Source: Vicinamibacterales bacterium
GTDB lineage: Bacteria; Acidobacteriota; Vicinamibacteria; Vicinamibacterales; UBA8438
Direction of reading: 5' to 3'
Assembly: GCA_965200475.1 (NCBI GenBank)
Contig: CBDAUL010000007.1
Coordinates: 242,516-306,515, forward strand
DNA: 64,000 nucleotides
Below the pieces are notes generated by a model, which saw only the letters and a program-made list of their open reading frames with translations, did not search any database and was not told the DNA's origin. Both the position numbers and the translations under genes were made by a program. Below are positions 17,406 to 19,547 of the stretch, one piece after another (within the stretch, counting starts at the first letter, position 1; every line of letters begins with the position of its first letter).

Positions 17406-18467
17406 CTACTTCGAGCCGCCGGCGGCCTTCGCCGCCGCCTGCCGGTCGAGGTTCCGGGACATCGAGAGGATGTTCACGATGTCGTGGTTCCCCTCGTGGC
17501 AGGCGTACTCGAACATCAGCTCGTCCGTCCGCGTCATGGGAATCTCGGCGCTCCACGGGCGCATCCACGACGTCGGATCCTTGACCGTGAACTCGTAGAG
17601 GATCTCGTCGGGACCGACGGGCGTGAAGCGCTCGACGACGTGCAGGGCGTCGCTGGCGCCCCGGAAGTGCGTCTTGCGGGTGAAGTTCCTGGTCTCCACC
17701 ACCAGCGTGTCGCCCTCCCAGCGCCCGCGGCCGTCGCCCGGCCACTGGCGGATGCGCGCCGGCAGCGGCGGGCGCCCGTCGAGCGGCACGATGCGCGGCG
17801 GGTTGTTGCTCATCTCCTGGAAGACGACGACGTGGTCCGGCGTCTGGAAGATCTGCAGGATGTCGTTGTAGGAGGGCGGCAGCATCGGCGGCCCCTCGTG
17901 CCGCCACACCAGGCAGCGCTCCTGCACGCTGCGGGTCTCGTAGCTGTCGAAGACGGGGTTGGGCCGGCTGCGGGCCAGGTACTCGCGCGTGACGAGGCGG
18001 CGCGCCTCGCGCCGGCTCGCGGTGGGCGTCAGGGCCGGAATCCGGCCGTCGGGCGGGTCGACGATGAGCGAGGTGCGCAGGCTCGACAGGCTCTTGCGCC
18101 GCTCCTCCGTCAGCCAGATCGCGTTGTCGTAGTGGATGTTCTCCGGCGACTGGATGGTCTTCTGCCGCCGCAGCTCCGGGTCCGGCTCGGCGAAGGCGGC
18201 GCGCCCCGACGGGTTGGCGCCGTCGGCGGTGAACAGCGCGCGCAGCTCCGCGGCCTCCTCCTCGGTGAGGAACTCGCGGCCCGCGAACCGCTCGGGCCGC
18301 TCCAGGGGCGTGAACGTCGCCATGGTCCAGTGTCCCTGCAGGTCCGGCCGCCCGTCGGGCGTGCGCGGCAGCGTCCGGCCGCCCTCGTCCTGGCCGGCGG
18401 CGGGCGCCGCCGCCAGGCACACCAGCACCGCGCCGGCGAGCAGCATGCAACCGTGTCGACACCTCAT
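17406..18467 (-). CDS. secreted protein, paralogue 2 of the PDLQGxW...EYACHEGN family
   Basis: Signal peptide MLLAGAVLVCLAAAPAAGQ. Blocks GRPDLQGHW, PLERP, LTEEEA, SLIVDPPDGRIPALTP, ERCL, IVPLDGRPP, WEGDTLVVETRNF and FEYACHEGNHDIVNIL. Confidence 0.8.
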   Translation of the reverse strand: MRCRHGCMLLAGAVLVCLAAAPAAGQDEGGRTLPRTPDGRPDLQGHWTMATFTPLERPERFAGREFLTEEEAAELRALFTADGANPSGRAAFAEPDPELRRQKTIQSPENIHYDNAIWLTEERRKSLSSLRTSLIVDPPDGRIPALTPTASRREARRLVTREYLARSRPNPVFDSYETRSVQERCLVWRHEGPPMLPPSYNDILQIFQTPDHVVVFQEMSNNPPRIVPLDGRPPLPARIRQWPGDGRGRWEGDTLVVETRNFTRKTHFRGASDALHVVERFTPVGPDEILYEFTVKDPTSWMRPWSAEIPMTRTDELMFEYACHEGNHDIVNILSMSRNLDRQAAAKAAGGSK

Positions 18468-18515
18468 CTCCAGCCTCCTTCCGGTGCACCGGCAGCCGGG
18501 TCGGGAGCCGGCCGC

Positions 18516-19547
18516 TCAGCGGCCGGCGTCGGCCGCGGCGGCCCGCCGCTCCTGCGCCCGCGCGCCGCTGAGGATGTTGCGCACCGCCTGCTGGCCCTCC
18601 TGGCAGGCGTACTCGAGCATGTGATCGGGGGCGCCGGCGCTGGTCAGCGGCAGCGCCACGGTCCAGTCGCGGACGAACGTCCGCGGATCGTCGATGGTGA
18701 CCTCGTACTCGATGGTGTAGGGGTCGACCCGCGTGAAGCGCTCCACCACCCGCAGGTCGGCGCTGTGGGCCACCTGCGAGGGCTCGCCGCGCACGGGGTG
18801 CAGGGGGGTCTGATCCGTGAAGTTCCCCACCTCGACGACGAGCGTGTCGCCTTCCCAGCGGCCCCGCGAGTCGCCCATCCACTGGCGGACGCCGCCGTCG
18901 AGCGCCGGCCGGCCGTCGACCGGGATGATCCGCGCGTCGTGGATCATCTCGTAGAGGATCACCACGTAGCCCGGGATCTGCAGGATCTGGTAGTTGTTGT
19001 TGTAGAAGGTGGGAAACATCGAGCCGGGGATGCTGCGCGTGATGCAGCGGTCCCAGGGGCTCAGGTCCTCCCACGAATCGAACGACATCGCGAGCCGCTC
19101 GCGGTTCACCGTCCCGATGATGTGCCGCTCGCGCGCCTCGGCGGTCAGGGCCGGCACCTGGCCGTCCGGCGGATCGATCACCTGCGACGTGCGATTGGAC
19201 ACCTTGCCCAGGTGCTCGTACCAGTGGTCGGGTCCGGCCGTCGAGCCCTCATTCGACGACACCTCCGCGGCCTGCACCCGCGCGACAGCCTCCGCCTGCG
19301 CGGCCGCGAACTCCTCGTCGGTCAGGAACTGCCGCTCGCCGAACTCGGCCGGCCGCTCGAACGGCGTCGACGTGGTGTTCGACCAGATCCCCTGCAGGTC
19401 CGGGTCGCCCCACGCGGTGCGGGGCGCGGCGTAGGATTCGGCCGGTCCGCCCTGGCCCTGGCCGGCGGCCGGCCTGGGCGCGAGCCACGAGGCCGCGGCC
19501 ACGACGAAAGCGAGAGCAACGACGCGCGCGCCGGTTGCACGGGGCAT
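18516..19547 (-). CDS. secreted protein, paralogue 3 of the PDLQGxW...EYACHEGN family
   Basis: 343 codons counted back from the stop of ORF 18516-20396, with an AAGGAGG RBS. It begins MPRATGARVVALAFVVAAAS. Blocks GDPDLQGIW, PFERP, LTDEEF, QVIDPPDGQVPALT, DRCI, IIPVDGRPA, WEGDTLVVEVGNF and LEYACQEGQQAVRNIL. Confidence 0.8.
   Translation of the reverse strand: MPRATGARVVALAFVVAAASWLAPRPAAGQGQGGPAESYAAPRTAWGDPDLQGIWSNTTSTPFERPAEFGERQFLTDEEFAAAQAEAVARVQAAEVSSNEGSTAGPDHWYEHLGKVSNRTSQVIDPPDGQVPALTAEARERHIIGTVNRERLAMSFDSWEDLSPWDRCITRSIPGSMFPTFYNNNYQILQIPGYVVILYEMIHDARIIPVDGRPALDGGVRQWMGDSRGRWEGDTLVVEVGNFTDQTPLHPVRGEPSQVAHSADLRVVERFTRVDPYTIEYEVTIDDPRTFVRDWTVALPLTSAGAPDHMLEYACQEGQQAVRNILSGARAQERRAAAADAGR

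Follow-up and report, generated by a model that had tools for sequence, protein, structure and literature searches.

Four members of an undescribed family of exported proteins with a predicted barrel fold in a Vicinamibacterales genome

Four diverged copies of an unnamed family

The stretch of DNA analysed here, 64,000 nucleotides of contig CBDAUL010000007.1 from a Vicinamibacterales bacterium (hereafter the window), carries four genes for related exported proteins, which we call P0001 to P0004 in the order of their coordinates (Table 1). Each open reading frame (ORF) translates without a stop, and the proteins resemble one another far beyond chance, with pairwise BLASTP identities of 39-43% at E values of 1e-62 to 1e-82. 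A full-length MAFFT alignment contains 78 columns that are invariant across the four, gives identities to P0001 of 43-47%, and places the same blocks in the same order in every copy: PDLQG.W, RP, LT.EE, RTS..DPP.G..P, RC, P.DGRP, W.GDTLVVE..NF and EYAC.EG. The four reading frames with shared, ordered blocks described in the initial annotation are thus confirmed. A hidden Markov model (HMM) of the family scores the four proteins at 383-605 bits and finds no fifth copy in the window. Every N-terminus is basic, then hydrophobic, and ends in A-(A/G)-Q in the manner of a signal peptide; judged by their sequences, the four are Sec-exported periplasmic proteins. The only cysteines of each mature protein are the two at the conserved ERC and EYAC positions, and none of the four has a CxxCH haem-attachment motif, which we found only in fused relatives. 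Ribosome-binding sites of the AAGGAGG or GGGAGG type precede all four genes. For P0002 this is AAGGAGG, 7 nt ahead of the ATG; for P0003 it is AAGGAGGA, with TATAAT about 40 nt upstream. P0003 and P0002 lie on the same strand, separated by a 48-nt spacer.

No Pfam or NCBIfam model matches any of P0001-P0004 at E<=1, and profile searches of PDB chain sequences with family alignments returned noise only (E>0.3). In the full-text literature we found nothing relevant on the PDLQG or ACHEGN motifs, on DUF6152 or DUF6644 (two partner families discussed below), or on the combination of lipocalin-like proteins, pyrroloquinoline quinone (PQQ) and Acidobacteria, and the source databases annotate the relatives merely as "hypothetical protein". 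The profile comparisons that had been suggested for each paralogue thus place none of them in a well-characterised family, and the description of the four as secreted paralogues without a named family is borne out. The family is nevertheless very large. An exhaustive profile search over 1.84 billion representatives, with clusters at 50% identity, returns 25,735 clusters at E<=1e-3, of which 14,089 remain at E<=1e-10, and word-indexed searches with P0002 and with P0003 return at least 8,000 candidates each. The 80 best species-level loci come mostly from Vicinamibacterales and Bryobacterales (Acidobacteriota), with a few from Gamma- and Alphaproteobacteria.

The initial annotation had read the presence of four copies in 64 kb as a lineage-specific expansion. 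Our analysis does not support this. P0001, P0002 and P0004 are 57-68% identical to genes in other genomes, compared with 39-43% among the window copies, and they fall into separate clades of the family tree. Because the closer relatives lie in other genomes, and in a family of some 25,700 clusters, these identities mark the window copies as anciently diverged rather than as products of local expansion.

Conservation was assessed from 140 diverse representatives and from the 164 members found in 82 loci, and the ordered blocks are present in both sets, that is, well outside this genome. With residues numbered as in P0002, the universal core comprises G39, P41, G45, R57, S133, G141, P144, R184, C185, Q208, E218, R225, G244, G248, W250, T254-L255-V256, E279 (with R280), T294, D297, E320, C323 and E325, to which the main subtype adds H324, N327, L334 and R338. 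By contrast with this core, residues 75-130 and 150-180 of a large insert are variable and indel-rich. C185 is present in 100% and C323 in 96% of the 164 members, all subtypes included, and since both cysteines are co-conserved in every subtype, the ERC and EYAC cysteines most likely form a structural disulfide. We can rule out that EYACH serves as a single-cysteine haem c attachment site, as the cysteine and its partner are kept in members without the histidine. Three histidines are common across the family, H221 (82%), H234 (71%) and H324 (94%), and a separate C(V/I/T)EF clade lacks all three. Within the window the pattern differs from copy to copy (Table 1), with P0003 retaining only H221.

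How should the unusual CQEGQQ motif of P0003 be understood? In the family tree P0003 sits inside the CHEGN clade, which rules out that it belongs to the histidine-less CVEF partner clade. The motif EYACQEGQQ is fixed in 17 clusters that span 72-100% identity, while the next relatives, at <=67%, are of the CHEGN type. H324Q and N327Q thus arose together and have persisted throughout this 17-cluster group, which suggests that the two side chains work as one unit. A decaying copy is ruled out by the fixation of the motif over this range of identity and by RNA-derived contigs that cover the gene. Nor do P0003 and P0002 form a conserved pair, since the downstream partners of P0003 orthologues vary by genome. 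Two genomes have a haem c-PHM-like gene in this place and one has a P0001-like copy, where the window has P0002. The haem c-PHM-like genes directly downstream of these CQEGQQ-type orthologues (locus L086, 7032-8417, and locus L087, 7182-8564) encode a 460-aa exported CxxCH protein.

Predicted fold and fused relatives

We modelled P0002 with AlphaFold2 (predicted local distance difference test, pLDDT, 79.6; predicted template-modelling score, pTM, 0.77) and, independently, P0001 (pLDDT 76.3, pTM 0.75). Both models share one layout, in which a short GxW strand leads into some 150 residues made up of loops and short helices, after which come eight strands, the EYAC strand and a terminal helix; the 150 residues, with their scattered short helices, separate strand A (45-48) from strand B (203-208). 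Against the PDB, Foldseek returns for both models tardigrade SAHS, FABPs (FABP4), myelin P2, CRABP-II and NanoLuc, with alignments of about 116-126 residues, template-modelling (TM) scores of about 0.5 on the target and about 0.22 on the query, a best E value of 6-7e-4 and, for the top matches, root-mean-square deviations of about 4-5.5 angstroms. The predicted fold is thus an approximately 10-stranded calycin/FABP-like barrel with the GxW segment as strand A, and the models put the large insert where the helix-turn-helix lid of a FABP would be. The sequences match no Pfam lipocalin or FABP model at E<=1, and the models show no helix-turn-helix lid. There is no sequence signal to the FABP family, and the likeness is one of fold and not of family membership.

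The CHEGN loop is the most conserved motif of the family and has low pLDDT in both models, a combination typical of a loop that becomes ordered on binding a ligand or a partner. If the FABP topology holds, then PDLQG, the cysteine pair, DGRP(H), NF, DP and CHEGN would gather at the N-terminus end of the barrel, and E218, H221, R225 and the WEGD turn at the lid end.

The most direct hint at function comes from fused relatives. A search with the N-terminal part of one relative, P0163, finds 41 clusters, 36 of which fuse a class-II-like cytochrome c directly to a CHEGN-type domain. The fused cytochrome has one CxxCH, and the sole signal peptide lies ahead of it, with no second one. The CHEGN-type domains of these fusions share 44-50% identity with the window proteins, a closeness equal to that among the window paralogues themselves. 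Moreover, the same class-II-like cytochrome module is also found fused to an NHL/SGL six-bladed propeller (P0353), which suggests a portable electron-transfer domain of periplasmic enzymes. In a second fusion type (P0141), CVSCH and a terpene-cyclase-like toroid are joined to the family domain, and some members carry an extra lipocalin-like domain (P0238, of the Lipocalin_5 family, and P0254).

Elsewhere the family also belongs to a recurrent gene module. Its tightest partner is DUF6152 (PF19649), whose mature N-terminus reads His-His; HMM searches find 37 such ORFs in 26 of the 82 loci, as a rule immediately downstream of a family member. A CVEF-type paralogue usually lies directly upstream of the CHEGN gene (17 such pairs), and DUF6644 membrane proteins, with weak matches to CopD and DUF2214, are adjacent. 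In three genomes the module consists of a CVEF-type gene, a CHEGN-type gene, DUF6152, two DUF6644 genes, a cytochrome fusion and PAP2, and in two of these three a cytochrome c-PQQ dehydrogenase lies beside it. Genes for haem c-PHM-like copper enzymes occur in 13 of the 82 loci. As a separate observation, DUF6644 genes form adjacent pairs (L082, 6870-7977; L083, 6940-7976; L085, 3793-4825), and in their products a transmembrane helix starts with a conserved E-S-(V/I)-H motif and a second histidine also lies within the membrane; a haem b or metal site is possible.

Setting in the window and the link to PQQ dehydrogenases

The window as a whole is an island of exported oxidoreductases and hydrolases. 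Around the four family genes lie three PQQ dehydrogenases, the DUF1592/DUF1552 genes and the exported ankyrin-repeat protein listed in Table 1, along with GMC and Gfo/Idh/MocA oxidoreductases, an amidohydrolase, an alpha/beta hydrolase and a TonB-type receptor. One ORF in this region, 7906-9984 on the + strand, is not a gene; it is an Arg/Ala-rich antisense artefact of the PQQ dehydrogenase opposite. The ATGA overlap through which P0001 had been proposed to be coupled to a GNAT gene is present in the sequence, as is the reported convergence of P0004 (stop at 32181) with a PQQ dehydrogenase (stop at 32276), across a gap of 94 nt.

Table 1. Positions of the family genes and of other features in the window
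Feature	Position	Strand	Remarks
P0001	1998-3062	-	CHEGN-type member, 354 aa; all three common histidines
P0002	17406-18467	-	CHEGN-type member, 353 aa; signal peptide; H324 present, without H221 and H234
P0003	18516-19547	-	variant, 343 aa; CQEGQQ replacing CHEGN(Y/H); upstream partner of P0002
P0004	31171-32181	+	CHEGN-type member, 336 aa; all three common histidines
GNAT acetyltransferase	3059-3955	-	stop overlaps P0001 start (ATGA)
DUF222-HNH gene	3904-5898	-	upstream of the GNAT-P0001 pair
PQQ dehydrogenase, soluble glucose/quinate-type propeller	8017-9972	-	651 aa; same type as 32276-34447; real gene opposite the + strand ORF 7906-9984
PQQ dehydrogenase, methanol/ethanol-family type	10017-11855	-	
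DUF1592-type haem c protein (PSD/PSCyt domains), then Tat-exported DUF1552	11984-15777	+	periplasmic redox neighbourhood
Exported ankyrin-repeat protein	15893-17398	+	convergent with P0002
AAA_21/AAA_15 ATPase (AbiEii/OLD-like)	19882-21195	+	divergent from P0003
Insertion sequence, copy 1	25486-26979		1494 bp; overlaps end of DUF4143 gene
REP-like repeat, site 1	30820-31141	+	just upstream of P0004
PQQ dehydrogenase, soluble glucose/quinate-type propeller	32276-34447	-	convergent with P0004; neighbour, not operon partner
REP-like repeat, site 2	34440-34545	+	5' end of PQQ dehydrogenase gene
REP-like repeat, site 3	38732-38749	+	
tRNA gene	44366-44437	-	adjoins phage-type integrase and S24 repressor
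Insertion sequence, copy 2	47893-49386		1494 bp

The initial annotation had described the four genes as tracking the PQQ dehydrogenases. The co-location itself stands, since a PQQ dehydrogenase lies within 10 kb of a family gene in 27 of 81 related loci. The suggested measurement of neighbourhood enrichment, however, shows these enzymes to be barely closer than genes in general (median distance 2.0 kb versus 2.7 kb for all genes, p=0.024), and they fill only 15 of about 354 immediate-neighbour slots, 5 of them on the same strand. The commonest immediate neighbour is another family gene (125 of the same slots, 116 on the same strand), and 53 of 82 loci contain at least two family copies. In the window, none of the four genes shares an operon with a PQQ dehydrogenase. 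Tracking thus amounts to co-location in the same kind of island and not to partnership, and the window copies are not dedicated subunits of PQQ dehydrogenases.

The sequencing runs that contain the window sequence are sponge metagenomes, and in four sponge metatranscriptome assemblies there are contigs that match the window exactly across all four genes. One of these RNA-derived contigs (18049-18870) crosses the P0003/P0002 junction and another (2307-3658) crosses the GNAT/P0001 junction. P0001-P0004 are therefore transcribed, in the sense that the contigs record presence in RNA libraries rather than level of expression. Among the local genes P0004 has the best coverage, with exact contigs at a depth of 11-61 versus about 2.5-14 for neighbouring genes, depth being a poor measure of expression.

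Upstream of P0004 we also noted a repeat resembling repetitive extragenic palindromic (REP) elements, with core GCGCACGGCGCGCCTCGG and internal stem-loops, which occurs in 5 copies, all on the + strand, where 0.27 would be expected. P0004 is closely preceded by two to three tandem copies, and another lies at the 5' end of a PQQ dehydrogenase gene (Table 1); the repeat has no Rfam match. RNA-derived depth is very high over 30763-31264, a figure summed over all contigs at least 95% alike, those of other organisms included. Several features of the window have a mobile character. The two copies of an insertion sequence encoding a DUF772 + DDE_Tnp_1 transposase are 99.9% identical, and the AAA ATPase next to P0003 and the DUF222-HNH gene next to the GNAT-P0001 pair look like mobile or defence-type insertions beside family copies. 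The tRNA gene is the only Rfam match in the window.

Interpretation and comparison with known systems

What might such a protein do? The reading we favour, at somewhat less than even confidence, is that the family is a periplasmic small-molecule-binding barrel that takes part in cytochrome-c-linked redox chemistry. The C185-C323 disulfide would fasten the lid insert onto the final strand, close to the His-Glu-x-Asn loop, and the barrel would hold a small molecule, either substrate or cofactor. The candidate site is a polar set of buried type, Q208, E218, R225, E279/R280, D297, E320 and E325, joined in the main type by H324 and N327, which would perform electron transfer with c-type cytochromes or couple to it. 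If the polar site does exchange electrons with c-type cytochromes, the protein would be an oxidoreductase or its substrate- or cofactor-holding partner. The window copies would then be stand-alone versions, three canonical and one of the CQEGQQ type, spread across a periplasmic oxidoreductase island.

Several of our results weigh against this proposal. With a TM of about 0.5 the fold match is weak, and it extends over only one third of the protein, and the gathering of motifs at one barrel end would follow from FABP topology alone. The proteins have no recognisable cofactor-binding motif and a single near-invariant histidine. The window lacks DUF6152 (by HMM) and DUF6644 as well as any CVEF-type copy or fused cytochrome; because its copies stand alone, without these module partners, the redox role is carried over from relatives. 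Across the 82 loci, CxxCH proteins are not enriched next to family genes (5.8% versus 5.4% for distant genes, p=0.86), and we found no conserved synteny among P0002 orthologues. On the side of transcription, contig depth measures expression poorly and DNA carry-over into RNA libraries is possible. A bolder version of our proposal, of which we are doubtful, would make the family the subunit that performs catalysis or holds the cofactor in a periplasmic redox system not yet described. Cytochrome c, which some members have fused and others would use as a free protein, would exchange electrons at the disulfide-clamped His-Glu-x-Asn loop at the N-terminal barrel end, and a metal or the tie to the membrane would come from DUF6152 and the paired CopD-like DUF6644 proteins. 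The window copies would be free-standing enzymes of this chemistry, with small organic molecules as substrates, and would work next to PQQ, GMC and PHM-like oxidoreductases.

The main alternative, which we regard as unlikely but of appreciable weight, is a passive FABP-like carrier or chaperone that would shuttle hydrophobic or amphipathic molecules between outer-membrane receptors, periplasmic enzymes and the inner membrane, with different paralogues for different ligands and no redox chemistry of its own. FABP, CRABP and SAHS are after all the best fold matches; the high copy number and common tandem arrays, the concentration of the most variable, indel-rich segments in the lid insert, the extra lipocalin-like domains of P0238 and P0254, and a neighbourhood of diverse catabolic periplasmic enzymes and TonB-type receptors would all suit a set of carriers. 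A strict charged and polar constellation kept over some 25,000 clusters would, however, be unusual for carriers of varied ligands, and a carrier would leave the recurrent cytochrome c fusions, the fixed DUF6152/DUF6644 module and the joint change of H324 and N327 in a conserved variant without an evident place.

Two further possibilities assign the family a more specific task. By analogy to CopC/CopD or to ZinT, the family might handle a metal, with copper as the first candidate, together with DUF6152 and the CopD-like DUF6644. The frequency and position of DUF6152, the weak CopD and DUF2214 matches of DUF6644, the haem c-PHM-like genes (two of them directly downstream of P0003 orthologues) and the joint loss of the three common histidines in the CVEF clade are consistent with such a role. 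We nevertheless consider it improbable. Only H324 is near-invariant, P0002 and P0003 each keep a single and different histidine, and the joint loss is confined to one clade and so counts as one event. A single three-histidine metal site is weakened both by this patchy conservation and by the presumed barrel topology, in which H221 would lie at the opposite end from H234 and H324. Moreover, none of the proteins matches ZinT, CopC or a metal-binding family in Pfam at E<=1, and neither DUF6152 nor DUF6644 occurs in the window. The idea behind the initial annotation, that each copy is a dedicated accessory of one PQQ dehydrogenase, as an electron acceptor, a maturation factor or a chaperone for cofactor or lanthanide, seems to us the least probable of all. 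Three such enzymes do share the window, one of them convergent with P0004, and others occur in loci L001, L082, L083 and L086; the co-location and the slightly shorter distances reported above speak for it as well. But two thirds of the related loci have no PQQ dehydrogenase nearby, few are immediate neighbours and fewer still on the same strand, and neither the operon structure of the window nor the variable surroundings of P0002 orthologues fit a one-to-one partnership.

While the window contributes four ordinary members of the family, the family itself is far from marginal. It comprises some 25,000 clusters and has no name and no solved relative, and the abundant bacteria of soil, of sediment and of sponges that carry it often have 5-12 copies each. 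Neither curated databases nor the searchable literature describe the family, and the same is true of the insert, the motif set, the cytochrome fusions and the module, although the fold class itself is known; new here are the group of CQEGQQ variants, the pattern of histidines, and the evidence for the age and transcription of the window copies. The near-invariant polar site, the cytochrome c fusions and the fixed DUF module suggest a common and unstudied periplasmic chemistry, which would be at home in organisms whose oxidation of organic matter is extracytoplasmic. The ligand or cofactor, once defined, would annotate tens of thousands of genes together, and could also explain how the periplasmic oxidoreductase islands of Acidobacteriota are wired.

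Comparison with known systems places the family near several without assigning it to any. To the accessories of the XoxJ/MxaJ, MxaD or cytochrome cL type there is no Pfam or NCBIfam match, and a conserved operon with the dehydrogenase is lacking; the published lanthanide/PQQ proteins and lipocalin-like hopanoid carriers are different and smaller proteins. ZinT is a calycin-like periplasmic metal binder, and the likeness to it and to CopC/CopD comes from the company that the family keeps elsewhere, namely DUF6152 with its N-terminal His-His and the CopD-like DUF6644; there is, however, no sequence match, these partners are absent from the window, and the histidine pattern is not strictly kept. 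With quinohaemoprotein alcohol dehydrogenases and haem c-PHM-like proteins the family shares, through its relatives, a fused cytochrome c domain, but the window proteins lack a haem motif and the barrel domain has no known cofactor. Lipocalin_5 (PF13924) has a similar GxW starting strand, is found in the neighbourhoods of family genes at 5 loci and forms the C-terminal part of a fusion with the family member P0238. Homology to it was rejected, as hmmscan gave no match and hhalign against nine Lipocalin_5 domains gave a probability of 0.4%. The sole consistent structural match for two paralogues is to the intracellular lipid-binding proteins (FABP4, myelin P2, CRABP-II) together with SAHS and NanoLuc, with which the C-terminal 120 or so residues and the N-terminal GxW strand share a small up-and-down barrel. 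Compared with these, however, the present family is 2.5 times larger and exported, has a conserved cysteine pair and a conserved insert of about 150 aa in place of the lid, and combines an invariant Glu/Arg/His/Asn constellation with relatives fused to cytochrome c.

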